64,000 nt of DNA from Branchiostoma floridae (lineage: Eukaryota). Below, piece after piece: positions 22,903 to 52,452 of the stretch. A program made the position numbers and the translations under genes. The stretch's first letter is position 1. Each line of letters begins with the position of its first letter. Location: the NCBI RefSeq assembly GCF_015852565.1, contig NC_136205.1, positions 3,066,707-3,130,706 of the forward strand, read 5' to 3'. The notes under the pieces are model-generated. The model ran no database searches and had not been told where the DNA came from. It saw only the letters and a program-made list of their open reading frames with translations.

Positions 22903-22939
<37 letters not shown>

Positions 22940-34900: not shown

Positions 34901-37900
34901 TTATCTTGTATTACGTAACACTTTGAAAATTGTTTGGCTGAAAGGCTGATATAAAATCAAACTATTATTAAATAAACTGTTTTCTTCCCCTCTGTAGGTT
35001 GTTGTGTTGCAGTCCTATAAGAATGAAAACAATGTTGCCATCGAGGCCAAGTACGTGTTCCCGCTAGATGACATGGCGGCTGTTGTCGGGTTTGAAGCAT
35101 TCATCAACGGGAAGCACGTGGTCGGAGAGGTGAAGGAAAAAGAGGAGGCACATCGCGAGTACCGACAGGCGATCAGCGAGGGACATGGTGCTTACCTCAT
35201 GGACGAAGAAACTCCTGTAAGATTCTTGATGACTTAAATTCAACAGTTATTTTTGCAGTATTAGTACTGTTAGTAGTATTTTGTGTAATAGCATTGTGGG
35301 TAAAACTGTTTGCTTTGTATTTGAGATTTTGTGTGTTCAAACCCCAGGTGAGTCATAATAGAGAATTTTGAAGAAATTATGTCATACAGTTTGATGCAAA
35401 AGAATGTGTACTGCCTTATACAGAGTTTTGGGTCACAACAAAATAGCAATATACAAGAGGGCCAAGTAAGTATCCTGGTGGAACCCCAACCCTAGACCAT
35501 ATATCTTTTGACAAGAAAAACTAAGTTTCCACTGGTCAGTCTGTGAATGTTTTACTACCTTCTTGTCACTGCGCCAACAAACAATGTTTCAGTGTCAAAG
35601 AGGTACATTCAATGACACATATCTTTTACATACAGTGACAATTGTTATGATTTGTGTTTTTCTAGGATGTGTTTACAGTGAGTGTAGGGAACCTGCCCCC
35701 CAGAGCCAGTGTACTGATCAAGATCACCTACGTCGCTGAGCTGGCAGTGGAGGGAGAAAACATCTGCTTCAGACTGCCTGGCAGCGTCGCTCCCTGGCAG
35801 GTGTGTTTGTCTAGAACTTTGTTACCATGGCAACAAGACGTTGTTATCTCCGTGTACGAATGATTCATTCTGTTTTTTTTATATTCTTGGTGTCCGTAGT
35901 TATTTGAATACACTGTCAGTAGATTTTGAGTGTCAGGAAGTGAGTGGGAAAATGGTGTCACAGTGTAAACTTGGGAGAGTGACAGTTCATGAAAGTATCA
36001 GACATGACAGGTCATCGGGTCAATGGAAGAGGCTACTAATTTCACGGGGAGACTATTTTTTTGTCTGTGTATTTGCAGTTATGCATTTTCCACATGCAAG
36101 TCACACTCACTATAGAGTAACAGGAAACAATCATTATTTAATGGACATATAATAAATGTAATAAGGACTTCGAACTCTTGTTTTGGATGTTGAGATAATA
36201 TGTACATTGTATAATGTTTGTTTGATCACAACTAAGATTATTCAAAGATTTTTTAAGCTTAGATTTTCCACCAACAGAAAGATTCACTCTCTGAGAAGAT
36301 CCAAAAGGACCTGGAAACTGTCAAGGTGGAAAAGGATGCTGGGAAAGAATTCTCCCTCCAGGTCGCCATGGAGATGCCCTTTGACATCAGGACCATCCAA
36401 TCACCATCTCACAAAATCAGAGTGAAGGTAGAAATTACTTCCATGACCTGTTTTGACTCAGCCAAGGCACTCTGTTTCTTTGTCACTAACCATTCTGTTA
36501 TAATTACAAAATGTACTTTGAAAATGCTGATGAGCTTTTGCAAACAAAACAATAAAAACAGTCTTGAAAACAATTATCCAATCAGAGGACTAGATTTTTT
36601 TTAGAATGTTCCTAAATAATGTATTGCATGCTCAGAAATGATTAATGTCATCTCTGACTACTGAGGGCATAATTTTTGTCCTGTAATTTTCTTTGATTTT
36701 TCTTGCTATCCTCTTATATTTTATGAATATACTATTAGATGATAAAGCAGTGGTTTGATAATAGATATTACTTCATTCCTCAGTTATGAATTTAGATGAA
36801 ATGGTTATCTGTGTGTAGGGTCAGAGAACGACTCGGCATAATTATAAGTTTCTCTTTATCCCCACCAATCAGAGGACAGCAAGCAAGGCTGTAGTGGAGC
36901 TGGAGAAGAACTGCATGCTGGGAGCTGGTTTCCTGCTGCAGGTTGGGCTGGCTGAGATCCACGTACCCAGGATGTGGGCGGAGCGGCACCCTGACAAGGA
37001 CAGCCAGGTTTGTTGGTTTGTTTGAACTTTAGCATGAAAGCTCATCTGTGTTGGTATAATCGATACTGAAGGTTTTTAATTGTCATTCAACACAAGAAAT
37101 TGCTCTCCTCGAATTTTCGGTAGCACATCCGTCAACCTTTGACAGGAGTGGTGGTTCAATTACTCTAAACATGTGATGTAGGAACACGAATGAAGAATCG
37201 TAGATGCTTGGCAAGCGGTATCGGCCCCCGTCTCTGTTAAGTGTCGGCTAGTGTGATCTTATGTGTATGGCCTCCTTTACCCCCCTCGCGAAGTAATCCG
37301 GTTCAGTATCCAATATTTGTGCTTTGTTTTAACTTTGTTTCTTCATAAAAGCTCAAATTGTCCTGCAGGCTGCTTTTCATTGAGGTCATGAGGGAAGAGA
37401 CAAGGGTCAGACTAAGTGTATAACAGAGATACAATACAGTTAATGATGATATGCATTCTTTGATTAATATCATCATATAGCAGGATATCAGTTGATGATA
37501 CTCTTTCCTCTTTTTATTTGAGGGACTGAAAAAGTCACAAAGTTGTGTTTAAGGGTTGAACTATGCCATCTCTTTTTTTAAACCCTCTTCATTATACACA
37601 GGACTGTGAGGGTCAACAAGTTATACTAAGTCTTATGTGGGGGTGAAGTCTGCTATCTCTAATGATTTTACTTAAAAAAAATCTGTTCATACACAGGCCT
37701 GTATGCTGACCTTCTACCCAGAATTCCAAGCAGAGGTTATGCAGGGTCATGAGGTCATCCTCCTCTTGGACGGGTCCAACTCCATGCGGGGGTCAGCTCT
37801 GGAGGCAGCCAAGAAAGTCGCCCTGCTCTGTCTGTGCCATCTACCAAAGGAATGTAGCTTTAACGTTGTTGCTTTTGGCACAGGTGTGTTCTTAATCATT

Positions 37901-40900
37901 TTCATTTTGAAAACAGATTTGCAATGGAATATGATTCTATTTAACTTTCTTTGGTGCTGATTGGCTATCACACGATGCGGTCTCATTTCAAATGATTCTA
38001 TTTACCTTTCCTTGGTGCTGATTGGCAATCACATGAGGCATTCTCATTTGAAATAATTTTATTTACCTTTCATTGGTGCTGTTTTGCAGATTTGTAACGG
38101 AATACAAAATAGTCTGAAGCTTCTGTACGTTGGTGCAGTCGCTGTAGAAGAGCAATTTGAAAGAGTGCTCAACAAATTTCATCGATGAAATATCAAACGT
38201 TTGATAGGATATAGCCCTTATTCATGTCCTTGTTAGGTATTGTGATGTAACTAGTTTTTCTTTATAAACTTTACAAATTCCATTTTGTAGGATATGAGGA
38301 ACTGTTTGCTGTGAGCCAGTCCAGAACCAAGTCCAATGTCTCTAAGGCTGAAACCTTTATCCAGGTATAGTCTTCATCTCATTGTTATTGAGCATTATAA
38401 CTTATCCCATGTAACTGTCTTTCAAGGTTTATTAGGCAAGAAAACAGTATACTGTTCCTTTTTGTTTGCCATTCTAATGAAATCTTGTTTCATCTGTCCT
38501 TGGTGCTGATTGGCTGTTGCATAGGTAGTCTTCTCCTATGTAATGATTATAAACTTATCTTACCTTGGTGCTTATTGGCTGTGACATAAAGAAGTCCTCT
38601 TTCAAATGATTCTATTTCATCTTTCCTTGGTGCTGATTGGCTATCACATAAGGTGGTCTCATTTCAAATGATTCTATTTCATCTTAAGTTGGGTTCTGAT
38701 TGGCTGTGACATTAAGCAGTCTCCTTTCAAATGATTATATTCTATCTCTCCTTGGTGCTGATTGGCTATTACATGAGCAGTCTCATTTCAAATAATTTTG
38801 TTTTATTTAGTTAATGCTGATGGCTTGGAATTTAGGCAGTCTTCTTTCAGATGGTTCTATTTTATTTCTCCTTGGTGCTGATTGGCTATCACATGAAACA
38901 ATCTCATTTCAAATGATTCTATTTCATCCTACGTTGGTGCCAATTGACTATCACATGAGGCGGTCTCATTTCAAATGATTATATTTCATCTTACATTTTA
39001 CTGATTGGCTGGAACTTGAGGCAGTTTCTTTCGAGTGATTTTATCTAGCTTTCCTTGGTTCTGATTTGCTATCATCTCATGCAATGTTATTAAAACTAGT
39101 CTATTTTATCTCTCCTTGGTGCTGATATGCTATCACGTTGTGTAGTCTTTTATCTAAGTACTAGTTTTATCCCACCATTTATACTGAATGTCTCTTGGAT
39201 AATCCCATTTGATATCTGATTTCTCTTCCCTTACTAAATATCAAAACACAGCAAACCATACACTTTTTGTAGGTGATTTTCAGTAGTGATACATTTGACA
39301 AGAAAGCCATAGAAAGAAAAATGTTCTTACCAATTTCTGCAATTATTTTATCAGAATGTCAAAGCATCCAAGGGAAACACAGATGCATGGAGACCCCTGC
39401 GTGGGTTCTTCCTGCTTCCGCCGTTGGGTAAAACACGGAACGTGTTCCTCATCTCTGACGGACATGTGAACAACCCTGACCAGACTCTGAGCGACATCCA
39501 CCAACATTACCAGGAGACTAGGGTCTTCAGCTGTGGTGTGGGGTAAGGACAAATCTCACAAGATTTTGTGTACTATTCCTTGAACCTTGAACCTTGACCA
39601 TTCAAGATTCAAGATATAACAAATTGATCCTGACTGTCCGTAATAATTAGCAACCAATGACACTACTGGGAGACAAGGGTCTTCAGCTGTGGGGTGGGGT
39701 AAGAATGCATCTCACAAGATTTTGTGTACTGAACTTGATTCTACTGGAAGATACATTTGTAAGTCAATGTGTAACAACAGACAGATCCTGGCTGTCCATC
39801 ACAATTAGCAGTTTAACCAATGATGGTATGGTAATTAGTGTTTAGATTGGCTGCAGTCTCGCAGACATTTGCATTTTTCTGTTTTATATCCTATCTTCTG
39901 CTGGAGGTGGATGGGGCTATATGAGATTGGTCTACTGGTTAAGATTTGGAGACTTACTTCATGACTTTTTAGTTACTTTTGTCACTCTTTTTCAACAATA
40001 ATAATATGTAAGATGGAAATAGAACAATTGAACATCACAAAGTCTGTAGAACTCATATGAAAATGATTAGTTACAGAGATTGCCTTCCAACATAGCAACC
40101 TTCCATTTTTTTTTCATGTAGAATGTAGCAACAACACAATAATTCTTGATGCTTGTTTTTAGGTCAACTTCCAACAAACATTTGCTGCGAGCCTTGGCCA
40201 GGGTGGGAGGGGGCGCCTTTGAGTATTTTGATGATAAAACCAAATCCAAGTGGGAAAAGAAGGTAAAGTCTATCATTTTATATCATGAACATGTAATATG
40301 TTTCATCGTTTCCCATAAAGTTTGCATTGCATGTATATCTTAATCTATATTGTCATTTATCAATAATTACTTTTAATACTCAATTTCATATACTTTATTA
40401 GGCTTTTATGCATTTTGTTATTTATGTATGAATATCAAAACACATAATTCATTACATACTCTCAGGCATACTTTCATACACATGTGCACACATAATTTTT
40501 ATACAAACACACAAACATACACATAGGCACAGAGACACAAACACACACACACACACACACACATACACACACCACTAAGGTCATCTAAGGTCAGGACACA
40601 CATACCTATATGGTATCAAGTTACATATACTAGGGCAGTATGCAACGGAAAGGTATATAAGTGCGAACTTTGTGTCAGCCTCAAACCTCAGAAGATATTG
40701 AATGTGCACAGCAAAACTGGTTTGGCTGACCAGCTAAAAGTTACACACTGAAACTTGTAGCTCCAGATGTCTTACTGAGGGATGACTGCAGTGCAAAATA
40801 TGTTGGTAGCTTAAAGAATGAGTCCACTCAACTTTATACATAATACACACAACACACATAGGTACACAGACACAAACACACACACATACACACACACACA

Positions 40901-43900
40901 CACACATGCACACACATGCATGTACAATCATGTGTACACTGAGAAGATATTAAAGCAAAGCTTAAACCTCAAGTTTACTGTGTTTGATATAGTGACTAAT
41001 ATACATGTAGATGTATCTAAAACCCTGTCAAATTCCTAGGTGAAAGCCCAGCTGTGGAAAGCTGCCCAGCCCGGCCTGACGTCCATGTCAGTTGATTGGC
41101 AGCAGTGGGATGATGATGCCCCGCCTCCTGTCCAGGCCCCCAATCAGATCGTCTCTCTCTTCAACGGTTTCCGTCAAGTGGTGTATGGCTACGTCCCACA
41201 CTGCACTCAGGTCAAAACATTCCAATATACATGTAGTACCTGTCAACTTGTAAACCTGAGTCTGTAAACTTGTAAAATGCAAAACTTTGTACTAATTTGT
41301 ACCAGGTCTCAATGTTGTGCTCTTTGGAATTTAGGCACAATATCCACACTCATCAGAATGAATACCACAGTATCCATTTTTATTAGAATGAATACCTAAC
41401 TGTTGTTAGTGTCACTAAAATGAGTGATGCTGAAGAAGAGTGATGGATGTCACTTGAAATGTCCGTTTTTTTATCCAGTTGTTGGGATTGAATTGTATTT
41501 GAATATTGTTTACCTGGGTGTCCAACCTTCATAAAGGACTTCTCAAACTAATCTGAAACATGGCTAATCATTCTAAAATGAAAAAGTTTGTAATTGAAAT
41601 TACTGTAAATGTATTTAAGTTCGCGGCGATTTAATTTTGCGGGAGTGGGAAATGGACTTTTCACCGTGGTTTTAATTTTGCAGTAACACCATAGACTACA
41701 GTCTAATACCATAAAGAAAAATGTTCGCGGTGGTTTTAAGTTTGCGGTGAGGTGGTCTCCGCGAAAACAGCTAGCATTAATCCACCACGAACATTTCTGC
41801 ATTTACAGTATTGTTTTTATTTATTCCAGGCCACCCTGAAGGCTGTCATCAACAACCGGGAAATCAGCACCATGGTCTCCACCACTGAACTCAGCATCAC
41901 CACAGGCAAGGTGGGACAGGTTTTTGGCTACACCTCTGGGGTGGAGGCCATATTTCTTTTTAATAGCTGGGATTATTTCCTGTAACCAGGCATTTTAATT
42001 TGTTTGTTGATTGTTTATTTAAGGATTGAGACCTATACTAAACATACATGAGCAAAAGAGAAATAAAGCAACAGCTGCAGTAACAACACAGAATAAGAAC
42101 ATTCATACAACATTTTGGCAACTGTCTGTCACCTTCCTCAGAGCAATTCTGAGGGCCACTACACATTTTAGCTAAGGTGTCGCTGCTAGCAATGCACGTT
42201 AGGAACTATGACAGCCATTTATGCGTTCCCAAATATAACATTATACATATAACATATATTGATCACAATGATTGTTGTCATATATAAAATTACAGATGCC
42301 GACAGTCAGTAGATCCTGGTTGTGAATAAAAAAAATGTTACATTATAATAGTGATTTTCCAACCTGACTAAATGATTCAAAGGACTAACCACACAGTTTT
42401 GTCCCAGATCCTGCACCAGCTGACGGCCCGTGCTGTCATCAGAGACTGGGAGGACGGGACCCTGCATGCAGACAGGATGCACCATGAGGTCAGCGTGTTC
42501 TAAATCCTGACATTGAGAATCAGTGTGGTATTCCTCATGTCATGTGTGGCTGTGCTGGGTGGTTGTCTTTGTAGTACCGTAGCACAGTTTTCGTTGCTCA
42601 TTTGTACATTCTGCGGTCATGATCTTCTAATGGTTGATAGGTCTTTGGCTCATGAAAAAGTGGTATAATTTTGGGCCCTCTGGCAGCTTTTTTTAAACTG
42701 TAGGAGGCGATGTTTGAAAAAAAGAGTAAGGCAGGTAGGGGTTGACGGATTGTCACAATTTTTGCTATGTAGATGGCTTAAGAGATAATTGACATACTTA
42801 GTTGGCTTGTGTAAAGGGGTATAGTTTGGGGCTCTTTGGCAGCTTTTTTTGTAACTGCAGGAGCAGGATCTTCATGAATTTTGGTTAAAAAAAAACTTTG
42901 TAGATGGCTTTAGAGATAATTGACATGCTTATCTTTCTCTCTTTTTTTCCAGACAAAGAAAATGGGTCTGAAGCCGTACATTATCGACCTTAGTAAGGAG
43001 TACTCCATCGTCACACAGTTCACCAGCTTTGTAGCTGTGGAGAAGCGGGAAAAGGTGAGAAAAATTTTGGTGACACCAAGGGAACAGAACTTGTACTTGT
43101 AACAGTTACTGTAAGTGTGGAAATAACTCATAAGCCAGAGCGAAAAAAAAAAAAATCCATGAAAACAAAAATTCTGCCAAACCACAGGACTAAACATCCA
43201 GACCATTTTTTCCCAGGCTTGGTTTGTCTTATGGTCCACATCCAGTAAACCTGTAAGATACAATCATCGCCATTTCAATAAATATTTATTCATTTATTGC
43301 TATTCTTGTTCAAAGAGGGGAACGCCCCATGCCCTGACCATTTGCCCCCTTACCCTGAGGAGCGGATCCTCTGACAGTTATAAAATTCTGATTAACCAGG
43401 GGTAGTTTAAGGACAAACGTGGGCATAGTTTGTTTGTTTTTTGAGAAAAGGGGAAAAGCAACACACTCACGGATGTTATTCATAGAATGAAGTCAGTGTG
43501 GCCTATGACATAATGATTGTTTGATGCAGGATGAAGATCTGACTACCGGTGAGGGTCCAAGCATCACAGAACTGGTGGAAAAAGAGAGTGTGGACATCCT
43601 ATCCTACATGGGATGGGAGAGGGACAAAGGGGAAGAGGAGGCAGAGGAAGTGTATAAGGTATGAGCCAAATTAAAGTGGAATTTTGGCTTGCTTTAAAAT
43701 GAAAGATTTTTGTGAAGAAAATCAAGTACGTGTGCCTTAAATTTTTTGACTGGACATCGCATAGTTTCTTGTATTCAATTTCTAGAATAAAGTGCTTGAT
43801 GGACAGATCACAGAAAAGGCCATTGAACACAGCTTGGAGTTCTACACCACTGCAGTGGAGACTGCAAAAAGGGAGCTTCCCCCAACCCATCCAACAGTGT

Positions 43901-46900
43901 TGCAGTCACAGCTCTCTTTGGCAATGTTTTATCACAACAAATTGAATATGCAGGACAAGGCCTGCCTGGTTGCAAAGGCTGCCTTTGACGATGCGATCGC
44001 GGAGTTGGATACTCTGAGCAAGGAAAGCTACAAGGACTCGACCTTGGTGATGCAGCAGTTGAGAGACAACTTGACATTGTGGTCTGCTGAGGACGGGGAA
44101 GAAGAGAAAAAAGCCAACGAAAAGAAAAAGGTCCTTATTCCTAGTGTCAACCATAGCTCACTTTGGCTAATCAACCTTCTCGGATGAAGCCCATCTTACA
44201 TACCCAACCATGGCCTCGCGACCTTCTCCAGACCATGGTTGGGAGTTAAGCCCCTGTCACACATAGCCGACCATGCCCTCCCAACCTTCTTCAGACCATG
44301 GTCAGGAGTTAAGCCCTTGTCTTACATACCTGACCATGGCCTCCCAACCTTCTCCAGACCATGGTCAGGAGTTAAGCCCTTGTCTTACATACCTGACCAT
44401 GGCCTCCCAACCTTCTCCAGACCATGGTCAGGAGTTAAGCCCTTGTCTTACATACCTGACCATGGCCTCCCAACCTTCTCCAGACCATGGTTGGGAGTTA
44501 AGCCCGTCTTACATACCCAACCATGGCCTCGCGACCTTCTCCAGACCATGGTTGGGAGTGAGACCATCAGTAATTTGGACCAGACCAAACTTGGCAAAGT
44601 CATATTCTTCTAAGGTGCAAGCAGATTGGTAAAATGGAATATGGTTGGTAGCAAGTCATTGAAAGGTCCTGAATTTGTGACAGGGGATGTGACTAGTACA
44701 TAATTTTGCATGGAAACGGGAATAGACCGACTGAGTGTGCTTGTTAAAACTAAGAGTAGATTATCTTCAAGACCAGAATCTTCAAATTACCAATTGAATT
44801 TATCATAACTTTTCTATATTTGATGTTGTCAACAGGTCATAGAGGAAGTTTATTATGAAGAGGTTTTAATGGGAGGTAAGATACCAATTAATCTTTAATT
44901 TACATTTAGTTTAACCTTGTATTAAGTTGGAATTTATTGAATGGTTGATCATGAGATTTCAACACCAAGGACTCTATTGAAATGCACATCTTGATTTTGT
45001 TTTGGTATTTTTATTTTCCAACTTCTAGACTTGGATGATTTTGACATGGAGGACCCTGAGTATCTAGAAATGGGAGGTGCTGGTGTTTCCTCCAGCACAG
45101 AGGAGACAGAATCTGATGACTCGTGGGGATCAGATTCAGATCTAGATGAAGAGAGTGAATGTGAGGAAGGTAAGAAACTAGTTGGAAATCTTTAACGATG
45201 TATCTGCCCATCATTGCCAATCATCATCATCATATCTTGTCGCTCCATCTCCTTATCCAGCTGCGGGCTGCCTCATTGGCCTCTCTTAAGCTAAGGGCAC
45301 AACCTGCCGTACATACAATTTGTCTGTATGTTTTTTTAGGCCACGTTCCCCACATATGTCTGGAAACGCTTCGTCCGTACTGGCACATAGGGGGGCAAAT
45401 CCGCAGCCCGAGGGCACACAAAGTTTTGCCTGCACGTAAAGTTCTACAGCGTGTCTGCGTGCTCCGTCGGATTCTCTACGAGTTTGTATGGAGGCGGTAC
45501 TTACCACTTACGGATCCCAAAAGATTGCCCACGTATTTGCATGTACAGCGGGCTGTGCCCTTAGCTTTAGGTCACTGTCCGAGCAGGTTGGGCCAAGTTC
45601 ACAGTTTTGTAACAGATGTTGTATTGTTTGCAGCTCTGCTCAGTATGGGCAGGCTGCACTTGCAGATTTGTCCAATTTCATTTCCAATAACGTTTTCCCT
45701 AGAGTTTTGTTTATTTGATGTTTTTGGTTTTGATGTTGCTTAGACTGGAGATGGTTCGCTAGACCTAGTGGTTGACCAGTCAGGTTTGACTCACTGTGGA
45801 CTGCATATTTACTTTTGAATTATTCTATTGTAAATGCCCATATGGTTGTTTTATGTTCACAGTTTCACTGTTGCCGCTTTACCACATACTCAAACCACTA
45901 GGAACATTTCTCCATGACAGTAAATTGTTGCTACAGTATATGGTGCTATTGCATGTGAACTCAAAAAGTCCATTTTCCTGCTTCTGCAAAATCAGATCCC
46001 TGCAAACTTAATTGCATGTACTGTATCTTGTTCACAGGAGGTAAGGAAACAGTAAGAAAGAAAGATTCATCATCACCAGAGGAGGAAGAGAGTGAAGAAG
46101 AGATGGGGTTTGGATTGTTTGATGATGGTGAAGGTAGGATGGCAGGTGAGATGGTAGAGTACTGTAAATCTTGAGATGCATGGTTTTCATGGTGACATCT
46201 CCACCATGATACAATCGCCATACAAACAGCCCGGCTGGGCCCTGGGTTATAGAAATGTGACTTAGTCCTTACTGTTACCTAGTTTAATAAAAGAGACAAC
46301 GAAAAAGAACTGCAGTCAAAAATCATACTTTTGACACTTTTTGTTGGGCTCCGTTTTTCAAAGACACTAACTCTTGAATCTTTCTATTTCTTCAACAGCT
46401 GCTGATGAAAAAGAGGGTTCTCCTCTTGCTGATACTTATCAGATGAAGGCTAATGCCTTGCAATTGGAAAAAGGTCGATTTGCATCTCCCATGAGGTCTA
46501 GATCAAGGTCAAGGTCAGATAAACATTCCTCTCCAGCATACAGCCCGACATCTCCAGCATATAGCCCAGCATCTCCAGCATATAGCCCGACTTCACCTAC
46601 TGAGGAAGCCACAGAGGCTGAGTACACAAAGCCTAAACCTCTAGCTCGGAAAATGGCACCAAAACGGGTCGAAAAGGAGAAGGCACCAAGCCCACACTTC
46701 TCAAAGATGTCTGCAACGTTCTTGACCCGAGAATCTGAAAGGGGAAAGTCCTCATACAGAGTGTCAGATGAAGTTCAGGCTCGTGTAGATCGCCTTGATG
46801 ATCTAGTAGAAAAAGCTGATGCTCTTAGTGCACAAGCTGCAATATTTGGTGCTTCAACAACCATTTCTAAAGATGATGGCCTCTTTGCCGGTTCAACAGA

Positions 46901-49900
46901 GGCAAGTGTGCAGAAACCTAAACCTTTTGAATCCAAGCCAGGTATCGTTCAACCTGCCAGATTTACTTATGAAGCAACACCAGATACTACCAAGGGTCTT
47001 TTTGGCAGAAAGGCTGAACCAGAGACTGCAGGGTTTGCTCTTGCCCAGTCTGTGGCCGCAGAAGAGCCAGCTCCTGCTTTTGGTTTTGGAGCTCCAGTTG
47101 CAAGCTTTGGTGCAGAAACTTATGGAACTCGTGGTGTAGACTTGGATGCACCCATACCGTATGGCAAAATCCCAGTTGGTGGAACGCCGTTTGGTGAAAC
47201 GCCAGTTAGTGGAAAGCCGTTTGGTGAATCTGCTGTAAAGTTTGGAGGTCCTCCTGGCACTGTAGCTGGCACAAAGACGCAAGAGACTGCATTTGGTCAG
47301 GGTTTTGGTTATGCTTCAAGTCGTGGTGTAGGCTTTGGTAAAGCAACATTTGGTGAAGCAACATATGGCACACCATTTGGTGGAACACCATTTGCTGCAA
47401 CCACAGGTCTTTTTGCCCACTCAACTGCACCAAAGGATCAGGAAGCTGTGTCATTTGGTTTTGCTCCCTCTACTGACCAGAGCACAAGGGGTGGTGGAGG
47501 ATCCGCAGGTGGTTTTAGCTTTGGTTGGACTGCATCATCAGATTTGGGACAGAGGGATCGAGACAGGAGCTCCCCCCTAATTGGTGACACAAAAAAAGGA
47601 TTCAAGTTTGGAGCCTCACTTGAAGAGAAAGAAGAAACAGCAAGCTTTAGCTTTGGTGGATCCAGCCAGAAAGTGGTTCCTCAAGCAGGTTTTGGAGCTG
47701 ATCAACAGATGCAGCAGCAACAACAGCAACAACAACAACAGGCTCAGATGAATGTCTCTGATACTGCTCCTCAGAGGAAGATGCGAAGCAGGCTTCATGG
47801 CGCTATAGCTACCTTAAGTGAATCCAGTCAAGCAGAAATGGTTCCTGAAGCAGGTTTTATCTCCAATCAACGGATGCAGCAGCAACAGGCTCAGATGGAT
47901 GTTCTTCTTACTGCTCCTCCGAGGACAGGTGGTGGAAGGGTTCATGGCGCTTTAACTAGATTAGACGAATCCAGTCAAGCAAAAGTGGTTCCTCAAGCAC
48001 GTGTTGGCTCTCGAGCTCCTCAAAAAGCGAGGAAGACAACTGGCGGCAAGGCTGTTAGAGTTTCTTCAGGATTCAAGGACAGCTTGGACATCGTAGACAA
48101 GAGTTCACGCGACACTGGTGACTCTTGGAGAGCTGTCAAACGGACCGAGACCCCCATGGCTGGTTATTTTGACATGAGGGCCATGTCCCCTGCCTCAACA
48201 AATTCTGCACAGTCAGTTGCTTTTCAACAGCTGTCAGCATCTGCTGCCTTTCTACAGGCACCCCCTCCTGCGCCACCCCCTTGTTCAACAGGCCCCCCTC
48301 CTCTTCCACCCCGCTGCCCAGCAGGACCCCCTCCTCCAGCTGGTGCCCCTCCCCCACCACCACCACCCCCTAAGGGCATTCAGCTTCTTAAACCAAGAGC
48401 AAGTTTAAAGTCCAAAGCAGTAATGGCAGCACCCATGCGTGCACTATCCATGCCCTCGAAAGAATATGCCCCATTGCCCCCTCCTCCTCCAAGTTCAGTC
48501 GAACAGGCACCAGAGCTACCAGCATGGGATAGAGAAGAAGAACTGCAAATGGGGATTGTTGAAGAAAGCCGTGCAATTGCTTCGTATGAACAGATGGAAG
48601 AGTTAAAACCATTGTCAAGAAGTTTGGAATTGAGACAAAAGAAGAAAAAGAAACAGTTCGAAATCCAGGCAAGGTTGGAGGAAGAAAAGGTATCATTGGA
48701 CAAAGTCATGTACATGGATGAAAGCGTTCAAGAAGGAGAGGAAATGTACAGGTAAGAGTGAAGTCAACAAAGTACAGTCTCTACCTAATTAGATGAATGT
48801 GAAATTTTCCACAAATCGGGGGAATATTTTATCTGAGAGCTTGCAATTGCCTGGTTAATGTAGTACAGGCTTGTCCGCTGAAGATTGTAACTTGTAACTG
48901 TAGCCCTTTGGCCAATTTCTACTGATTTTTCACATAAACCACAGTCTCATAGGGACTAAATGAAATGTTTGATTTATGTAATTGTGGCAAACATGTTGCC
49001 TACCTGAGCTTTTCAAAGGAAAAATGTAAAGTTTCAATAAAGTTAACGTAAATTACTTTCAAGGACCAATTTAGGGACTATTCTTGACAATTGAACTACA
49101 TGTAAATCCAAGGTTACACAAAGCTTACCATAAAAGTGTACAACTTGTGATAACAGTCATTATTTTCCACATAAAGCAGTGTTCAAGTTTGTGGGCACGG
49201 GTCAATGGTATGCAAATGTATTGTGTCGTCTTAACTTTATTCTTTAAAGTAGGGGTTCTTTGCATTGAGCAATTTCATGATATTCATACAATGCCACATC
49301 GTTGTAAACACCACAGAAGACAGTATCTCTTTTGTTTAGTATTTTTGTTTGATGTCAGCCTGTTGTTACATGATTGTGTATAATTATGCCTTTGTCATCT
49401 TGTTCATGACTTTTGTAACATGTATTACAAACTTTATTTCAGGACCAGTTTGAGGGGGTTTTACGGTCCAAGAAGAGGTCCCGGTGCATATCACTCTGCC
49501 AGCTTTCATCTAACCTCAGGTAGGTTAATCAATTCATGTGCAAAGTAAGGCTAATATCAGTAGTCTAAGACTAGATGGAGAGCTTTTTTATATAGTCATC
49601 CAAAGATCTAAACTTCATTGAAATATCATGATAGGACCGTTGATCATTGAAATAGCATTGAAAGATGTTGTAGGTCACTAAAATATCATTAGTAAGACCA
49701 TACTTCAAATGGGGGCATGGGTTCGTATCCCACTTCTGACACCATATTGGCTTAGAGATTATCTCAGTCGTAGACTTAAAATGCTCAACATTTCTTGTCC
49801 CAAAGAACTAATTGCCAAGGTACAATGGACCTGTAAATACTGTACACAGTGTCCATCTTACCTGTCATGACCAGTGCAGATGTTAGTAATGACTGACTAA

Positions 49901-52452
49901 GAAAAAAGAAATTGCACAAATGTCTAATCTGAAAAATGATGCTCACAAGTAATCATGTTTTTTTTCAACCCTCTGCAGGTTCCTTTAGTGGAAGAGAAAT
50001 TGATGTAGTACCTGTCGTGACCACAAGGGGGAGGGTCATCACAGAGACAACTGTTGACCAAATCTTTGCACTGCTAAAGGTATCATTTGTAATTATTGGT
50101 TCAAATATAAAGTATAGTAGCTCTAGTTTTAGAGTGATGAATTACTGTAACATTAACACTGAATTTATTCTTTTTTGAGTGGGAGATTAGAATTGGTCTT
50201 GCACCCATCCATAATTTGACTGTTTTTTTGACAGTTTACTGCGTACTCGGATGCCAAAATGTTCTTTTATTCTTTATTGCAGGCGCTAATAGGCCCATAG
50301 TAAAAGCCTACTGTATAAGACACACAACATAACATAGATATTAAAACAACAATGCCACTCTATGTGTACAAGCGCCTCCTGATGTTTTTGAAATATTATT
50401 GTGTTATGGTAGAAAGAATCCAACTAGATGGAATGGGAAGAGTGGAAAAGCGGAATATACAAAAGAACGTTTGCGTCATGATAGAGTAATATTAGCATAG
50501 ATAATACCATAGTTTACTCATATAGCTAAAACCCAAGGATAAAACAATCAAATTTAATTATATTGCCCCCCTCCCCAGCACACTGACCAGGGGCTCTCCT
50601 ACTGGGAGTTCAGTCCAGAGTTAGACGAGTTGCTTGGGATTTCCAGTCAGCAGTGCATCCAGATATTTAACACTGCAGGACTCAAATCTCTGGGTAAGAT
50701 CTCATTCATGATCATGGTCATAAGGATATGTGTCCATACATGTAGTCAGGTCAGATGACAACTGTTTCCCTCCTGTCAACAGTCTTTCAGCCTGCAAAAA
50801 GAATCTTCACATCTATTTCCTTGCATGATACTAAGTAATTTTCGCAAACCCATCAACTTAGTTCATTGCCTAGAAGTGGTCAAATGGTCTTGCTTTGATC
50901 AAGCCATATTGCATTAACAAAAGGTAAAGAAATGAAATAAGGAATGAATGAAGACCTTTATTCTACATTTTTGCCCAACTGAACTAAGCACAGGTCACAA
51001 GAAAGACAAAACACACAATGTTATGCAAAAGTACAATATTATTTGTATCATAGATCTAATCTAGTGAAGAAGTTTGGCTTCTTCTCCCTTCCTGGTAATG
51101 GTAAAAATGTAGGCTTGTATGTTGTTAGGTTTGTCAAAATGCAACTCATATCTATTAAGTGAATCTACTTCCTATTTCTATCATTAACATAGTGCATAGT
51201 CCAATCAACAACGAAGTGAACTTCATCTTCATTTATCTTCATCTCCAGGTGTGAATGTTGCCAGGCAGATACTGCAGCTGGTGGCCACCTTTGAACAAGC
51301 TCGTACAAAAAACATTGAAAAATACCTTTAAGTTAGCACTGAGTGGGACATAATTTTTTATTTTTATTTTGATCTCCAGGTGCGAATGTTGCCAGGCAGC
51401 TGCTGCAGCTGGTGGCCACCTTGCTGGTTGTGCAGCTGCTGATGCTGCACCTGCCGCAGCTGTTCCCCAGCTGCAGGAGCCTGCTGCACCTGGATGTGGC
51501 GCAGGTGCCGGCCAAGTGGTGCAGTGCATTGCAGCAGGTGCTCACATGGGCCAAGGTAGGATTTTGTACTACAAAACTACCAAAACTAGACTGAGTTTGT
51601 ACTACAAAAACTTAATTTGTATACACTTGTTGCAAGAAGAGGAAAGAGACATGTAAATGATAGATGTAATAATAGTGGCGCAGGCGTCAGCCACTTGGTG
51701 CAGCACACTGCAACAGGTGCTCACATCGGCCAAGGTAGGAGTTACCTACTGATAATATGAGGGGCAATCAATAAGTTTACACAGAAAAAAGGTGCACAAC
51801 TCAAATTTTGGAGCATTATAAACTATATGAATGTGCACCAAAATTCAATGGGCCAAGGTAGGAGTTGGCTACTTAGTATGAGGGGTGATCAATAAATTCT
51901 TGGACTCATGAATAAAGGTGCTTAACTCAGATTTTGGATCTGATGTAAAGTATAAAGTATTATATGAATTTGTACCATAATTCAAATCATTGTGATCATT
52001 ATTGTACAGGCAACACCCAGTAATGGTAGGTAAGAGAGAAGAAAAAACATGGACAATTGAGCTGCAAGCTGAGGTGTGCATGTCAACTTGTTCTGCTAAA
52101 TGTCGGATACTAATAAAAGAATTAGGCACTGAAGAGGACGAATTTGAAAGAGAAATCAAGAAGCTTAAGATCACACCAATGTTCACTCATCAGGTATAAG
52201 CTTTGTTGTACTGTTGACCAATCGCTTACGTGACATGAATTATGAGGAAGACTGCAGTTGAAATTTCTATGTACTATTTTCTTGTGGTGGAACAAAATTT
52301 TAATTCTGTTATCATATAAATCTATTCGTTTATTAATTTTTCTATTTTCACAGAGTGTTGACACGATGCACCCATCAGTGTACTCCCGTTTGGAGCTTGG
52401 GAAGAGTTGGGAGGACCTGACCACAAAGCTGATCGGTGTCAGCAATGCATAG
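21542..52452 (+). CDS. PARP4: Gene model (39 coding exons): vault poly(ADP-ribose) polymerase (PARP4/VPARP) homologue. Domains: BRCT, PARP regulatory and catalytic, VIT, vWA, long disordered mosaic linker, C-terminal vault-interaction region.
   Basis: Colinear by-eye similarity to human PARP4 across all globular parts. Examples: [119 protein letters not shown]. All exon phases are consistent. ATG at 21542, TAG at 52450-52452. Confidence 0.9.
22171..22366 (+). CDS. PARP4: PARP4 exon 2 (BRCT, C-terminal part)
   Basis: [65 protein letters not shown]. ttctag/gtaatt. Confidence 0.85.
22636..23133. mobile_element. Foldback element with about 230-bp arms and a central G36 homopolymer (PARP4 intron 2)
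   Basis: Left arm cattatagagaattgctaaactttcattccaacac... The right arm is its reverse complement, ending at 23133. G-run at 22904-22939. Confidence 0.8.
23247..23545 (+). mobile_element. 5'-truncated copy of the SINE-like element seen at 11360-11900
   Basis: gggcatgttcgggcatga...ggaagtcctcctag...gcatctgctgg..cacacgttgcatacagttg is colinear with 11567-11815. Confidence 0.7.
23715..23775 (+). CDS. PARP4: PARP4 exon 3
   Basis: (A)[19 protein letters not shown]. ttccag/gtaagg. Phase 1 to 2. Confidence 0.7.
23978..24101 (+). CDS. PARP4: PARP4 exon 4
   Basis: [41 protein letters not shown]. Compare human QDFEVAKYNTLEK. cttaag/gtgagt. Confidence 0.75.
24484..24615 (+). CDS. PARP4: PARP4 exon 5
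   Basis: [44 protein letters not shown]. taacag/gtgaga. Confidence 0.75.
24762..25111. mobile_element. MITE with cagggctcgaaat termini (intron 5)
   Basis: 13-bp perfect TIR. The interior holds many gggtgcac repeats. Confidence 0.65.
25290..25454 (+). CDS. PARP4: PARP4 exon 6
   Basis: [55 protein letters not shown]. taccag/gtaagt. Confidence 0.75.
25835..26005 (+). mobile_element. Interspersed repeat family B copy (intron 6)
   Basis: Colinear with 8363-8535. Confidence 0.7.
26092..26229 (+). CDS. PARP4: PARP4 exon 7
   Basis: [46 protein letters not shown]. Compare human VSDLVEMIWAEALGHLEHML. ctgtag/gttcgt. Confidence 0.8.
26893..27069 (+). CDS. PARP4: PARP4 exon 8 (PARP regulatory/helical domain)
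   Basis: [59 protein letters not shown]. Compare human AEGILLLVKAALKNGETAEQLQKMMTEFYRLIPHK...KKADLCQ. Confidence 0.85.
27073..27426. mobile_element. hAT-type MITE (family D), copy 2, inserted 3 nt into intron 8
   Basis: 16-bp perfect TIR cagggctctagccagc / gctggctagagccctg. 8-bp TSD gtcaggta at 27065-27072 and 27427-27434. Confidence 0.85.
28013..28176 (+). CDS. PARP4: PARP4 exon 9 (regulatory to catalytic junction)
   Basis: [54 protein letters not shown]. Compare human LIRDMVNVCETNLSKPNPPSLAKYRALRCKIEHV. Confidence 0.85.
28199..28382. repeat. (GAGT)n microsatellite, intron 9
   Basis: gagtgagtgagt... for about 180 bp. Confidence 0.95.
28694..28885. mobile_element. Foldback MITE, intron 9
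   Basis: ccccctcacattag...gagtctgcgagctctaaattacgaggaggcatgaccctga, with its reverse complement forming the second arm. Confidence 0.7.
29065..29173 (+). CDS. PARP4: PARP4 exon 10 (catalytic; His of the H-Y-E triad)
   Basis: [36 protein letters not shown]. Compare human VLQIFRVGRVNETTEFLSKLGNVRPLLHGSPVQ. Confidence 0.85.
29363..29391 (+). CDS. PARP4: PARP4 exon 11 (29-nt microexon)
   Basis: AQNFVGILS. Compare human NIVGILC. tttacag/gtaggc. Needed for frame continuity. Confidence 0.75.
29827..29922 (+). CDS. PARP4: PARP4 exon 12 (catalytic; Tyr of H-Y-E)
   Basis: [32 protein letters not shown]. Compare human [31 protein letters not shown]. Confidence 0.9.
30280..30605 (+). repeat. Two extra tandem copies (152-bp period) of the acceptor and 5' half of PARP4 exon 13 (pseudo-exons)
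   Basis: Copies start at 30302 and 30454; the real exon starts at 30606. Both extra copies diverge after GATGTGTA into TCAACACGGCATCGATTCCTAA, which gives an in-frame stop. Confidence 0.85.
30606..30789 (+). CDS. PARP4: PARP4 exon 13 (catalytic)
   Basis: [62 protein letters not shown]. Compare human LSTSIKYSHPGETDGTRLLLICDVALGKCMDLHEKDFSLTEAPPGYDSVHGV. Confidence 0.9.
31017..32610 (+). mobile_element. 5'-truncated non-LTR (LINE) retrotransposon: reverse-transcriptase C-terminal part plus 3'UTR, in PARP4 intron 13, same orientation as the gene
   Basis: ORF 31113..32291, open upstream to 31017. RT motifs: [44 protein letters not shown] (YxDD). (CAAA)n tail at about 32595-32610. Confidence 0.85.
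32794..32837 (+). CDS. PARP4: PARP4 exon 14 (catalytic Glu of H-Y-E)
   Basis: [14 protein letters not shown]. Compare human DDEFVVYKTNQVKM. ttacag/gtatgt. Confidence 0.85.
33018..33185. mobile_element. MITE family C, intact copy (intron 14)
   Basis: Termini acagtagaagcca ... tggcttctactgt. Colinear with the split copy at 18330-18488 and 19697-19712. Confidence 0.75.
33803..33921 (+). CDS. PARP4: PARP4 exon 15
   Basis: [40 protein letters not shown]. Compare human KYIIKFSMPGDQIKDF. Confidence 0.85.
34405..34541 (+). CDS. PARP4: PARP4 exon 16 (VIT domain start)
   Basis: [46 protein letters not shown]. Compare human AGLQDASGNLVPLEDVHIKGRIIDTVAQ. Confidence 0.85.
34998..35216 (+). CDS. PARP4: PARP4 exon 17 (VIT)
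   Basis: [73 protein letters not shown]. Near-identical blocks to human PARP4. Confidence 0.95.
35666..35800 (+). CDS. PARP4: PARP4 exon 18 (VIT)
   Basis: [45 protein letters not shown]. Compare human [26 protein letters not shown]...ATVAPWQ. Confidence 0.95.
36278..36427 (+). CDS. PARP4: PARP4 exon 19
   Basis: [50 protein letters not shown]. Compare human QSFSLTMSIEMPYVIEFIFSDTHELKQK. Confidence 0.85.
36873..37007 (+). CDS. PARP4: PARP4 exon 20
   Basis: [45 protein letters not shown]. Compare human RTDCKAVISTMEGSSLDSSGFSLHIGLSAAYLPRMWVEKHPEKESE. Confidence 0.9.
37697..37883 (+). CDS. PARP4: PARP4 exon 21 (vWA domain with MIDAS DxSxS)
   Basis: [62 protein letters not shown]. Compare human ACMLVFQPDL...VIICLDCSSSMEG...VNIIQFGT. 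Confidence 0.9.
37925..38090. repeat. About 60-bp minisatellite with a ggtgctgattggct core (CCAAT-box-containing), intron 21 block
   Basis: Three units. Same family as 38480-39175. Confidence 0.8.
38291..38364 (+). CDS. PARP4: PARP4 exon 22 (vWA)
   Basis: [25 protein letters not shown]. Compare human GYKELFSYPKHITSNTMAAEFIMS. Confidence 0.85.
38480..39175. repeat. About 60-65-bp minisatellite (about 11 units) with a ccttggtgctgattggct core, intron 22
   Basis: Repeated tcatttcaaatgattctatttcatct(t/c)tccttggtgctgattggctatcacat units. At least ten intact ATTGG (reverse CCAAT) across both blocks. Confidence 0.85.
39355..39542 (+). CDS. PARP4: PARP4 exon 23 (vWA)
   Basis: [63 protein letters not shown]. 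Compare human MGNTDFWKTLRYLSLLYPARGSRNILLVSDGHLQDE...RLFACGIG. Confidence 0.9.
40163..40262 (+). CDS. PARP4: PARP4 exon 24 (vWA end)
   Basis: [33 protein letters not shown]. Compare human STANRHVLRILSQCGAGVFEYFNAKSKHSWRKQ. Confidence 0.9.
40505..40572. repeat. (CA)n microsatellite, intron 24
   Basis: acacacacac run. Confidence 0.9.
40843..40922. repeat. (CA)n microsatellite, intron 24
   Basis: cacacacaca run. Confidence 0.9.
41040..41210 (+). CDS. PARP4: PARP4 exon 25
   Basis: [57 protein letters not shown]. Compare human SVSVKWQQLNPDVPEALQAPAQVPSLFLNDRLLVYGFIPHCTQ. Confidence 0.9.
41405..41535 (-). mobile_element. Interspersed repeat family B copy, reverse orientation (intron 25)
   Basis: The reverse complement matches gacacccaggtaa...caactgga...cggacatttcaag of the 8363-8535 type. 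Confidence 0.55.
41601..41810. mobile_element. MITE family A, full copy, 20 bp upstream of the PARP4 exon 26 acceptor
   Basis: tactgtaaatgtatttaagttcgcgg ... cacgaacatttctgcatttacagta. Confidence 0.8.
41830..41910 (+). CDS. PARP4: PARP4 exon 26
   Basis: [27 protein letters not shown]. Compare human [27 protein letters not shown]. Confidence 0.9.
42408..42488 (+). CDS. PARP4: PARP4 exon 27
   Basis: [27 protein letters not shown]. Compare human MIHKLAARALIRDYEDGILHENETSHE. Confidence 0.9.
42953..43054 (+). CDS. PARP4: PARP4 exon 28
   Basis: [34 protein letters not shown]. Compare human [34 protein letters not shown]. Confidence 0.9.
43530..43658 (+). CDS. PARP4: PARP4 exon 29
   Basis: [43 protein letters not shown]. 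Compare human VSELIAKEDVDFLPYMSWQGEPQE. 129 nt, phase 0-0. Confidence 0.85.
43786..44130 (+). CDS. PARP4: PARP4 exon 30 (candidate cassette): in-frame exon encoding the C-terminal half of a 14-3-3 protein
   Basis: [115 protein letters not shown]. Compare 14-3-3 zeta [71 protein letters not shown]. tttctag/gtcctt. 345 nt, phase 0-0. Confidence 0.65.
44185..44575. repeat. 63-bp minisatellite (about 6 units) immediately 3' of the 14-3-3-like exon
   Basis: Unit gttaagcccttgtcttacatacctgaccatggcctcccaaccttctccagaccatggtcaggag. Unit starts at 44308, 44371 and 44434. Confidence 0.9.
44836..44875 (+). CDS. PARP4: PARP4 exon 31 (40 nt; acidic, Tyr-rich)
   Basis: [13 protein letters not shown]. caacag/gtaaga. 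Shifts the phase from 0 to 1, as required to enter exon 34. Confidence 0.6.
45029..45169 (+). CDS. PARP4: PARP4 exon 32 (acidic linker)
   Basis: [47 protein letters not shown]. ttctag/gtaaga. Phase 1-1. Confidence 0.6.
46038..46133 (+). CDS. PARP4: PARP4 exon 33 (acidic linker with a ribosomal P-stalk-tail-like motif)
   Basis: [32 protein letters not shown]. ttcacag/gtagga. Phase 1-1. Confidence 0.6.
46399..48751 (+). CDS. PARP4: PARP4 exon 34: 2.35-kb exon encoding a low-complexity/disordered region (RS run, CTD-like heptads, FG repeats, polyQ, H3-tail-like peptide, polyPro)
   Basis: Part of track ORF 46374..48755. Acceptor ttcaacag at 46391-46398, donor ACAG|gtaaga at 48751/48752. Phase 1 in and phase 2 out, matching the neighbouring exons. 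Confidence 0.8.
49443..49519 (+). CDS. PARP4: PARP4 exon 35
   Basis: (R)[25 protein letters not shown]. tttcag/gtaggt. Phase 2 to 1. Confidence 0.65.
49979..50079 (+). CDS. PARP4: PARP4 exon 36
   Basis: [34 protein letters not shown]. ctgcag/gtatca. Phase 1 to 0. Confidence 0.7.
50579..50693 (+). CDS. PARP4: PARP4 exon 37 (C-terminal vault-interaction region)
   Basis: [38 protein letters not shown]. Compare human QTEDGFWKLTPELGLILNLNTNGLHSFLKQKGIQSLG. Confidence 0.85.
51380..51555 (+). CDS. PARP4: PARP4 exon 38 (C-terminal region)
   Basis: [59 protein letters not shown]. Compare human VKGRECLLDLIATMLVLQFIR...ISRNIPWAFEAIKQASEWVRR. Confidence 0.8.
52354..52452 (+). CDS. PARP4: PARP4 exon 39 (terminal, with stop)
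   Basis: [32 protein letters not shown]. Compare human QYPSICPRLELGNDWDSATKQLLGLQ. ttttcacag acceptor, phase 0. Confidence 0.85.
   Translation, partial: SVDTMHPSVYSRLELGKSWEDLTTKLIGVSNA

Follow-up and report, generated by a model that had tools for sequence, protein, structure and literature searches.

PARP4 docks with its C-terminal domain on the inner wall of the vault particle, while the rest of the protein reaches the vault lumen via long disordered regions; human vaults co-purify with a different complement of proteins when it is present, and a role in cargo selection and localisation has been proposed (Lodwick 2025). In mammals, the largest PARP4 exon is disordered and under recurrent positive selection, and this exon 30 has been proposed as a host-pathogen interface (Daugherty et al. 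2014, PMC4038475). 14-3-3 sequences appended to PARP4-like proteins were reported from Branchiostoma floridae, sea urchin, Capsaspora and amoebae and read as a signalling domain (Perina et al. 2014, PMC4245714). Here we describe the PARP4 gene in a 64,000-nucleotide stretch of the amphioxus B. floridae (assembly GCF_015852565.1, contig NC_136205.1, positions 3,066,707 to 3,130,706; hereafter the window). The long disordered linker of this gene carries a series of segments that resemble epitopes of unrelated host hub proteins, and the region is best explained as a version of an ancient modular array in the vault PARP4 tether.

The amphioxus protein belongs to the same family as the PARP4-like proteins of Perina et al. 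and has the same 14-3-3 appendage after the VIT-vWA part. That report, however, gives neither the restriction of the appendage to its C-terminal half nor any of the further look-alikes treated below (P-stalk, CTD, SNARE, FG, H3, WH2, ubiquitin, actin, calmodulin, Snf7, Hsp70). Likewise, mammalian exon 30 occupies the same position as the amphioxus linker, being the largest and a disordered exon between the vWA and MVP-binding domains, but it diverges fast and no resemblance to host proteins has been reported for it, whereas the amphioxus linker has constant host-like islands. By eye, FG/LFG-type repeats and polyproline are still visible in the linkers of one lemur and one shark sequence. In the full-text literature searched, with partial journal coverage, the multi-module array was undescribed beyond the 14-3-3 observation. 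The statement in the initial annotation of this window that no PARP4 of this organisation had been described therefore stands for the array but not for its 14-3-3 part, reported by Perina et al. in 2014. The only paper in that literature related to decoy, mimicry, tripwire or toxin descriptions of PARP4 was Daugherty et al. 2014.

The gene was mapped by tblastn using the NCBI models P0051 and P0001, the B. belcheri model P0002 and the B. lanceolatum model P0032. Its first coding exon encodes the BRCT domain (start MGVFRGCQV, from position 21542), and its stop codon lies at 52450-52452. Pfam matched the PARP catalytic, VIT and VWA domains on upstream exon open reading frames (ORFs) of the + strand, and P0051, placed at 21542-44184, carries precomputed BRCT, PARP_reg, PARP, VIT and VWA assignments; the domains by which we recognise PARP4 (BRCT, PARP, VIT and vWA) were thus found in order. 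Five exons at 41040-43658 encode a post-vWA region, the last globular part ahead of the linker, which is conserved across phyla and shares 92% amino acid identity with B. belcheri at a ratio of non-synonymous to synonymous substitution rates (dN/dS) of 0.06. At the C-terminal end, four exons share 82% identity with B. belcheri P0002 and align with B. lanceolatum P0032 as well; for each of these two proteins a PF26156 (PARP4_MVP-ID) assignment is precomputed. PF26156 gave no match in any PARP4 scanned against the Pfam set used here, and the presence of the MVP-interaction domain in the window is indicated indirectly, via identity to P0002 and P0032.

Between the vWA/post-vWA region and this domain lies the linker of ~950 residues. 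Most of its disordered part is encoded by exon 46399-48751, whose position corresponds to that of the fast-evolving mammalian exon 30. The ORF at 46371-48752 is 100% identical to P0001 (NCBI, B. floridae x B. japonicum assembly), and its only other full relative is B. belcheri "parp4" (P0002). All linker junctions are AG/GT with compatible phases, and the look-alikes share one ORF. Order-promoting residues make up 19% of the linker after the 14-3-3 exon versus 35-40% of the flanking domains. The initial annotation had described six elements forming one mosaic in a disordered linker between conventional, well-conserved PARP4 domains. All six are present, at or next to where it had placed them, and both the disorder and the conservation of the flanks (dN/dS 0.06-0.16) bear this description out.

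As a comparison with composition-matched random sequence, linker segments were scored without gaps against host reference proteins (standard human sequences), and the scores were set against 1000 global and 1000 local-composition shuffles. The segments resembling the ribosomal P-stalk tail, the RNA polymerase II C-terminal domain (CTD), the histone H3 tail and the synaptobrevin SNARE motif beat all shuffles, with scores of 64, 100, 53 and 53, respectively, at null means of 26-34 and maxima of 43-55. Actin, ubiquitin and the H4 tail, scored the same way as negative controls, gave no signal in the same linker, and searches of the window and of the B. belcheri locus for concealed or degenerate modules (actin, ubiquitin, calmodulin, small GTPase, SUMO, H4) found none. 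Taken with the 14-3-3 and FG data below, the resemblances to the 14-3-3 C-terminal half, the P-stalk tail, the CTD heptads, FG repeats and the H3 tail are beyond chance. This is the outcome that the initial annotation had left to such a test, which the P-stalk, CTD, H3 and FG elements all pass.

The first look-alike has an exon to itself and matches Pfam 14-3-3 with E=1.7e-30 over profile positions 128-223 of 223, a strength that marks it as a true homologue, and of the C-terminal half only, as had been noticed initially. It corresponds to YWHAZ ~131-241 and begins after the phosphate-binding residues K49/R56/R127/Y128. The nine-helix fold with its N-terminal dimer interface and phosphate-binding residues is absent, and judged from its sequence the piece is a fragment and no 14-3-3 protein. 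A core at 43984-44082, which aligns to YWHAZ ~196-228, is kept in all three amphioxus species; the B. belcheri half is reduced to its last ~40 residues (~194-234), whereas the window and B. lanceolatum keep ~100.

Two acidic exons follow, and both tyrosine motifs that the initial annotation had named, YEEV and YLEM, are present in them. Their proposed resemblance to docking motifs, by contrast, is without statistical support: the motifs are not significant alone, the B. belcheri counterpart reads DYEDIM, and among the corresponding leaders of other species only 5 of 19 contain a Y[DEQG][DE][VILMA] motif, on which count the YEEV-type motif was dropped as a conserved module. The exons sit where other phyla have an acidic leader and an actin module. 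By eye, the leader is similar in Oscarella (DLIDDLFDMDYQSLVIDTG) and Halichondria (LVYEEVTEDYEYIESLVIDTG), and no actin remnant was detectable at the amphioxus acidic exons. The symmetric exon borders noted initially are found for the 14-3-3 exon (0-0) and the larger acidic exon (1-1) and extend to the P-stalk exon (1-1), but the 40-nucleotide YEEV mini-exon is asymmetric.

The P-stalk segment, centred on MGFGLFD (MEFGLFD in B. belcheri), stands far above its null (25.7 +/- 3.4, p<=0.001), as the initial annotation had suspected. It matches the last ~20 positions only of Pfam Ribosomal_60s, at E=0.0017 and short of the cut-off, and a PDB-wide search returned P2/P0 tails only, with a marginal best E of 0.077. 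P1, P2 and P0 proteins have an N-terminal dimerisation or uL10 domain and the tail at the extreme C-terminus; this organisation is not seen here, where the motif is internal. The CTD look-alike comprises three to four tandem YSPTSPS heptads without an RPB1 body (null 28.8 +/- 4.3) and recovers RPB1 both in the PDB (E=1e-5) and among 5.8 billion proteins (3e-14). B. belcheri has a single heptad, in which all 5 codon differences are synonymous. The RS dipeptide run that had been grouped with the heptads does not share their standing, being absent in B. belcheri.

A synaptobrevin (R-SNARE) look-alike follows in the same exon. It exceeds its null of 28.9 +/- 3.8, matches Pfam Synaptobrevin at E=0.0016 (short of the cut-off) and finds VAMP2/3 in the PDB at a marginal E of about 2. 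The segment is conserved in B. belcheri, aligns with the SNARE modules of other PARP4s and retains an arginine at the position of VAMP2 R56; the N-terminal half and the transmembrane segment of a full R-SNARE are absent. Further downstream, 16 FG dipeptides occur in 261 residues versus 4.5 +/- 1.8 expected by composition (z about 6; at most 13 in 10,000 shuffles), which confirms the FG-repeat character that had been assigned to this disordered region. It has conserved blocks in B. belcheri, and the Pfam matches of the linker include no nucleoporin family and no pore-anchoring nucleoporin domain.

The H3 look-alike is identical to H3 3-17 at 10 of 15 residues and includes the tail around K9 (ARKS/T-TGGKA). 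It exceeds its null (26.8 +/- 3.3, p<=0.001), and H3 tails account for 52 of the 53 PDB matches to the segment, at a marginal best E of 0.25, in line with the initial assignment; no histone-fold match was obtained in the window scans. Its ARKTTGGKA core is unchanged in B. belcheri at the protein level, all 3 codon changes there being synonymous. The 147-nucleotide unit that is duplicated just upstream occurs as a single copy in B. belcheri, and its polyglutamine is species-specific.

This element bears on one of the functions suggested initially, namely that the look-alikes are pseudo-substrates or auto-modification sites of the PARP4 catalytic domain. The linker is tethered to that domain, and S10 within ARKS of the parent H3 is a major serine-ADP-ribosylation site of PARP1/HPF1. 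However, the S10 position is threonine (ARKTT) in both amphioxus species, most parent proteins are not known PARP substrates, and the copying of whole epitopes, such as MGFGLFD or the actin D-loop found in other phyla, would be left unexplained; we consider this reading quite improbable. The element also compares with histone mimics, such as the ARKT automethylation site of G9a and the ARSK tail of influenza NS1. These, too, are short H3-tail copies in non-histone proteins, and the amphioxus ARKTTGGKA shares ARKT with G9a; unlike them, the PARP4 motif is internal and one of many mimics in the same chain.

For the last element, described initially as polyproline followed by a WH2-like motif, the polyproline tract is real, but KGIQLLK alone is not significant by shuffling (p about 0.07-0.11) and Pfam WH2 gave no match on the amphioxus segment. 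The pair nevertheless stands at the position of the polyproline and WH2 module of sponges (Oscarella WH2, Pfam E=5.5e-8). When the whole big exon was searched against the PDB, the CTD only was recovered; among 5.8 billion proteins, the same-species model, B. belcheri PARP4 and RPB1 tails only were returned, and phmmer searches with the individual amphioxus segments against other PARP4s retrieved B. belcheri only. By these searches, the linker has diverged too far for direct homology to be recognised beyond amphioxus.

The comparison with related species that the initial annotation had proposed was made with B. belcheri. Similarity between the window and the B. belcheri locus DNA is limited to exon blocks, and the linker is ~50% identical to the B. 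belcheri protein at a synonymous divergence (dS) of ~0.6-1.1. These identities cluster in the look-alikes: NLTLW (14-3-3), E.MGFGLFD, AYSPTSPT, QAR.DRL.DL.EK.D.LSA.A, several FG blocks, ARKTTGGKA and polyproline. The 14-3-3 and P-stalk cores have dN/dS values of 0.13 and 0.27, respectively, versus 0.48 over the linker as a whole, and in the H3 core and the CTD heptad all changes are synonymous. These values support the look-alikes as conserved islands held by purifying selection in a fast-evolving linker.

The same data speak to the reading that the resemblances have no function and reflect chance in low-complexity sequence, captured pseudogene fragments or prediction artefacts. It draws on KGIQLLK and the YEEV-type motifs, which are not significant alone, on the species-specific RS run and polyglutamine, and on the fragmented amphioxus gene models. 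For the core elements it is contradicted by the shuffle tests, negative controls and Pfam matches, by proper splice sites and compatible phases, by purifying selection on the cores at the divergence given above, and by the recurrence of these module types at the corresponding place in numerous genomes, annotated independently of one another, from several phyla; overall, we hold it to be extremely improbable.

Table 1 Features of the amphioxus PARP4 gene in the window, in window coordinates.
Feature	Coordinates	Strand	Details and basis
PARP4 gene span	21542..52452	+	Mapping of NCBI, B. belcheri and B. lanceolatum models; Pfam
Conserved post-vWA region (KWEKKV...VDILSYMGW), five exons	41040..43658	+	B. 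belcheri identity, cross-phylum alignment
14-3-3 look-alike exon	43786..44130	+	345 nt, 115 codons, phase 0-0; AG acceptor, GT donor
Mini-exon with YEEV motif	44836..44875	+	40 nt, phase 0 to 1; holds the P0001 start ATG
Acidic exon with DPEYLEM	45029..45169	+	141 nt, phase 1-1
P-stalk tail look-alike exon	46038..46145	+	108 nt, phase 1-1; MGFGLFD at 46103-46123
Linker big exon	46399..48751	+	2353 nt, largest exon; splice sites, 100% P0001 match
RS dipeptide run RSRSRSRS	46494..46517	+	Absent in B. belcheri
Pol II CTD heptad look-alikes	46530..46601	+	21-nt tandem repeat, 3 copies
Synaptobrevin (R-SNARE) look-alike	46767..46856	+	Aligns to VAMP2 51-80; unlisted in the initial annotation
FG-repeat region	46992..47663	+	16 FG dipeptides; FxFG-type FSFG, FKFG, and GLFG
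Tandem duplication with polyglutamine	47721..48010	+	147-nt unit, ~80% identity; upstream of H3 look-alike
Histone H3 tail look-alike	48015..48059	+	H3 residues 3-17, S10 to T
Polyproline tract (48258-48371) and KGIQLLK (48372-48392)	48258..48392	+	
Exon into vault-binding domain	49443..49519	+	77 nt; conserved in three amphioxus species
Alternative terminal exon with in-frame stop	49850..49896	+	End of NCBI model P0001
MVP-interaction domain, four exons	49979-50079, 50579-50693, 51380-51555, 52354-52452	+	B. belcheri/B. lanceolatum match

This organisation, for which the initial annotation knew of no described PARP4, is not peculiar to the one gene. A search with the conserved flanks, followed by one with a profile of the post-vWA region, yielded a set of 689 PARP4 proteins, on whose public protein models modules were placed by Pfam and phmmer. 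Foreign Pfam families were found in non-vertebrate PARP4 after the vWA domain and, where the model reaches that far, before the MVP-interaction domain. Sponges, Nematostella, crinoids, a brittle star, acorn worms, gastropods and bivalves all have such arrays, with at least one look-alike in 25 and at least two in 16 of the 30 long non-vertebrate, non-amphioxus models. Vertebrate models had any look-alike in 10 of 60 cases, and these were short motifs only (P-stalk tail, CTD heptad). The look-alike organisation is the usual state of non-vertebrate PARP4 in public models.

Several modules recur across groups. The 14-3-3 C-terminal half (YWHAZ ~125-235) is found in homoscleromorph sponges, acorn worms and gastropods, full-length ubiquitin in a demosponge, gastropods and bivalves, and the actin N-terminus (residues 2 to ~55-72) in sponges, Nematostella, crinoids, a brittle star, acorn worms, a gastropod and oysters. 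MGFGLFD-type P-stalk tails occur in a sponge, a crinoid, a brittle star, bivalves, Aplysia and some teleosts, YSPTSP-type CTD heptads in crinoids, sea urchins, Oscarella, a mussel and some fish, and the SNARE motif in Dysidea, Amphiura and Saccostrea. Three sponges have WH2 (Pfam WH2) after polyproline. The remaining modules are full-length calmodulin in the pearl oyster and a mussel, partial to near-full Snf7 in a Dysidea paralogue and a mussel, the Hsp70 substrate-binding domain in the Pacific oyster, and H3-tail look-alikes in Littorina (RTNQTARMSTGGKAP), Mytilus (KKQSARKSTGGKCPR) and Potamilus (TKAARKSA). A broadly common order, with 14-3-3, ubiquitin and actin followed by P-stalk/CTD, SNARE and WH2, is not strict, CTD and P-stalk preceding actin in crinoids. 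A Roc/GTPase match at the C-terminal end of a Mytilus model was left out as a module; it resembles the GTPases tested only weakly and may come from a fused neighbour gene.

Most modules are fragments unable to fold or act like the parent protein, each with the parent's best-known recognition epitope. In 17 actin modules, residues 36-55 (the D-loop) are 96% identical to actin, with the alignment anchor fixing 5 of these 20 positions, versus 59% and 35% in the two flanks. Nine of the 11 ubiquitin modules end in LRGG-Pro. Of the residues that can follow Gly76, proline alone makes a bond that deubiquitinases cut poorly, and ubiquitin-proline fusions are resistant to these enzymes. In the Littorina saxatilis model P0073 (1313-1353), an H3 look-alike comes within ~15 residues after a ubiquitin module ending LRLRGGP and carries K4N, K9M and K18M. 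K-to-M histone peptides trap and inhibit SET-domain methyltransferases. In Dysidea avara P0058, a look-alike of the actin C-terminal tail (DEGPSIVHRKVF, at about residue 1580) directly follows a P-stalk EMGFDLFG and is separate from the ubiquitin, actin N-terminus, SNARE and WH2 modules of the same protein; a second Dysidea model, P0055, has a different linker with a Snf7 piece. We considered whether Dysidea X2 and X3 are splice isoforms that swap modules, but substitutions run throughout, which makes them paralogues.

The array is a conserved, selected and modular series of host epitopes, flanked in a single polypeptide, in several phyla, by the catalytic/vWA half on one side and the vault anchor on the other. 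For its function we tentatively favour a bait line for proteins that recognise host hubs, chiefly pathogen ones, with a confidence somewhat short of even. In this model, the MVP-interaction domain would dock PARP4 on the vault wall, leaving the linker to hang in the lumen beside the PARP catalytic domain. Proteins that recognise host hub epitopes would then dock on the look-alikes instead of, or besides, their real targets. Once captured, these proteins, mainly pathogen-derived toxins, effectors and proteases, would stay in the vault and could be sequestered, ADP-ribosylated, or both. The broader proposal, that vault PARP4 is an effector trap of ancient animal or possibly older origin, presenting many host-hub baits in a closed cage beside an ADP-ribosyltransferase and thereby capturing and either neutralising or tagging pathogen proteins dependent on those hubs, is a speculative one that we would at present call unlikely.

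Five considerations lead us to favour a bait line. The parent proteins share little except their status as ultra-conserved hubs that pathogens target or use as cofactors: 14-3-3 is a hub for ExoS, ubiquitin for ExoU, actin for ExoY, YopO and ACD, and calmodulin for EF and CyaA, while the P-stalk is used by ricin-type toxins and VAMP by clostridial neurotoxins. Moreover, the modules are non-functional fragments that keep single epitopes, and some of them show trap-like changes. Module content varies by lineage, with at least one species having paralogues of different arrays, and the mammalian counterpart shows arms-race evolution.

Plant NLR proteins with integrated decoys (the WRKY of RRS1 and the HMA of RGA5/Pik-1) are similar in carrying a copy of an effector target inside a surveillance protein to whose family it is foreign, and the amphioxus linker, too, contains segments like host proteins foreign to its family (14-3-3, P-stalk, CTD, SNARE, H3, FG). 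PARP4 differs from them in its chassis, a vault-tethered PARP, and in its many serial baits, mostly unfolded epitopes or fragments, which are known from sequence alone. The position of the array also recalls engineered INT/MINT vault packaging, in which N-terminal fusions are carried into the lumen; the PARP4 array occupies that position naturally and is conserved, in contrast to an engineered cargo.

The main rival explanation is an endogenous multivalent adaptor, in which the look-alikes would dock host machinery to select vault cargo or to position vaults at pores, membranes or the cytoskeleton. Candidate partners would be translational GTPases (P-stalk), CTD-binding factors, karyopherins (FG), SNARE partners, H3 readers and writers, and profilin, actin or EVH1 proteins (polyproline/WH2). 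Each retained segment is the partner-binding epitope of its parent protein, which would suit an adaptor, as would the conservation of modules over hundreds of millions of years. The effect of PARP4 on the proteins co-purifying with human vaults, and the cargo selection proposed from it, point the same way (Lodwick 2025). On the other side, the parents come from unrelated pathways with no known common client, and the lineage-specific swapping (calmodulin, Snf7 and Hsp70 in bivalves, the Dysidea paralogues) resembles an immune repertoire. The K-to-M changes in an H3 look-alike and the proline after LRGG suggest traps, and the mammalian counterpart is under positive selection. We therefore regard an adaptor as a serious but rather unlikely explanation. 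Both this and the bait function had been raised with the initial annotation, and both gain indirect support from the present analysis; the pseudo-substrate function gains none.

A further option is a protease tripwire, in which a pathogen protease would cut a look-alike and thereby release the BRCT-PARP-VIT-vWA part from its vault anchorage, the released part acting as a signal much as in NLRP1/CARD8. The array occupies exactly the stretch that joins the catalytic half to the vault anchor, and several parent segments are classic protease substrates: VAMP of clostridial neurotoxins, the H3 tail of FMDV 3C, FG nucleoporins of enterovirus 2A and the actin D-loop of protealysin-type enzymes. NLRP1 and CARD8 likewise hold a disordered region mimicking protease sites between functional parts of an innate immune protein, but several PARP4 modules resemble binding baits and no FIIND/CARD-type output is present. 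Against cleavage, the proline after LRGG in the ubiquitin modules is unfavourable, and the SNARE look-alike of the window has isoleucine for the glutamine of the Q76-F77 scissile bond (from the alignment and the established cleavage site). In addition, four of the modules (P-stalk, CTD, 14-3-3 and WH2) copy epitopes that serve in binding and are not known to be cleaved, and no output domain is evident. Such a tripwire seems improbable to us.

Several points weigh against a bait line on a single chain. The pathogen link is drawn from the frequent role of these hubs as targets or cofactors of toxins and effectors. The conservation of modules from sponges to chordates would fit a stable housekeeping role equally well, the closed vault interior is not obviously accessible to large effectors, and no defence-output domain can be assigned, the PARP domain being a candidate only. 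Several of the short matches are marginal database-wide (H3 0.25, SNARE about 2, P-stalk 0.077). Finally, all three amphioxus annotations divide PARP4 among separate models, and the hybrid-assembly and B. lanceolatum models break directly after the 14-3-3 exon; we infer the presence of all modules on a single amphioxus transcript from the matching exon phases and the uninterrupted models of other phyla.

This split can be followed in the individual models. P0051 starts at the BRCT exon, takes in the 14-3-3 exon and runs on into the next intron, P0001 starts at the mini-exon ATG (MGD...) and ends in exon 49850-49896, and the B. lanceolatum gene is divided at the same place into P0045 and P0032. 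B. belcheri P0002 joins the post-vWA region, the 14-3-3 piece, the linker and the MVP-interaction domain in one model. The intron at the break contains a 63-bp tandem repeat (44194-44559; 5.8 copies, 91% matches), and no AATAAA or ATTAAA occurs in it. Because of this repeat and the missing poly(A) signal, an annotation break is the more likely reading of the split, and a real 3' end after the 14-3-3 exon is disfavoured. At the other end of P0001, the DNA around the alternative exon (49810-49876) resembles B. belcheri locus sequence (L001 8024-8089), which suggests that this exon is probably repeat-derived. Skipping it gives the isoform with the vault-binding domain; if the exon is indeed used, the product would be a linker isoform lacking the vault anchor.

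Should the effector-trap reading prove true, the vault particle, whose function has been obscure since 1986, would gain a concrete and testable role, and PARP4 would be the first multi-decoy immune sensor described in animals. The integrated-decoy concept of plant NLRs would then apply to an animal PARP too, one with serial baits. The only prior evolutionary clue to vault/PARP4 function was the unexplained fast-evolving disordered exon of mammals. Amphioxus and the other phyla show the content of that PARP4 region where it is still legible, namely an ordered and selectable set of epitopes of the most conserved eukaryotic hubs, and the vague notion of a host-pathogen interface becomes a specific, testable question for each module.

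Other features were observed within and around the gene. At 30300-30800 (+), part of the PARP catalytic exon region occurs in about three tandem copies, two of which are read through by P0051; either a genuine duplication or a fault in the assembly could account for this. A PARP4 intron holds a 424-residue reverse-transcriptase ORF (31017-32288, +; RVT_1 E=5.6e-22), a retroelement insertion. A second, diverged copy of the last MVP-interaction exon (58637-58735, +; ~74% amino acid identity to B. belcheri) lies 6 kb past the stop codon. Downstream of PARP4, on the minus strand, a 411-residue ORF (60021-61253) matches Pfam PF20706, 'Family 4 glycosyltransferase in conflict systems', with E=3.4e-77, so that a gene of conflict-system type neighbours the putative bait-carrying PARP4. 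Ahead of it on that strand lies a 315-residue ORF (62808-63752) that has no Pfam match and looks ZU5-like by eye. The region 54000-56000 has a GC skew of -0.27, an AT skew of +0.23 and repetitive ORFs and is probably a satellite or repeat block, and CA/GT microsatellites lie at ~28000-28400, 40500-40950 and 53170-53500. At the opposite end of the window (1-10000, minus strand), many exon-sized ORFs with calcium-binding EGF repeats (Pfam EGF, hEGF, EGF_CA) belong to a separate gene on the opposite strand to PARP4.

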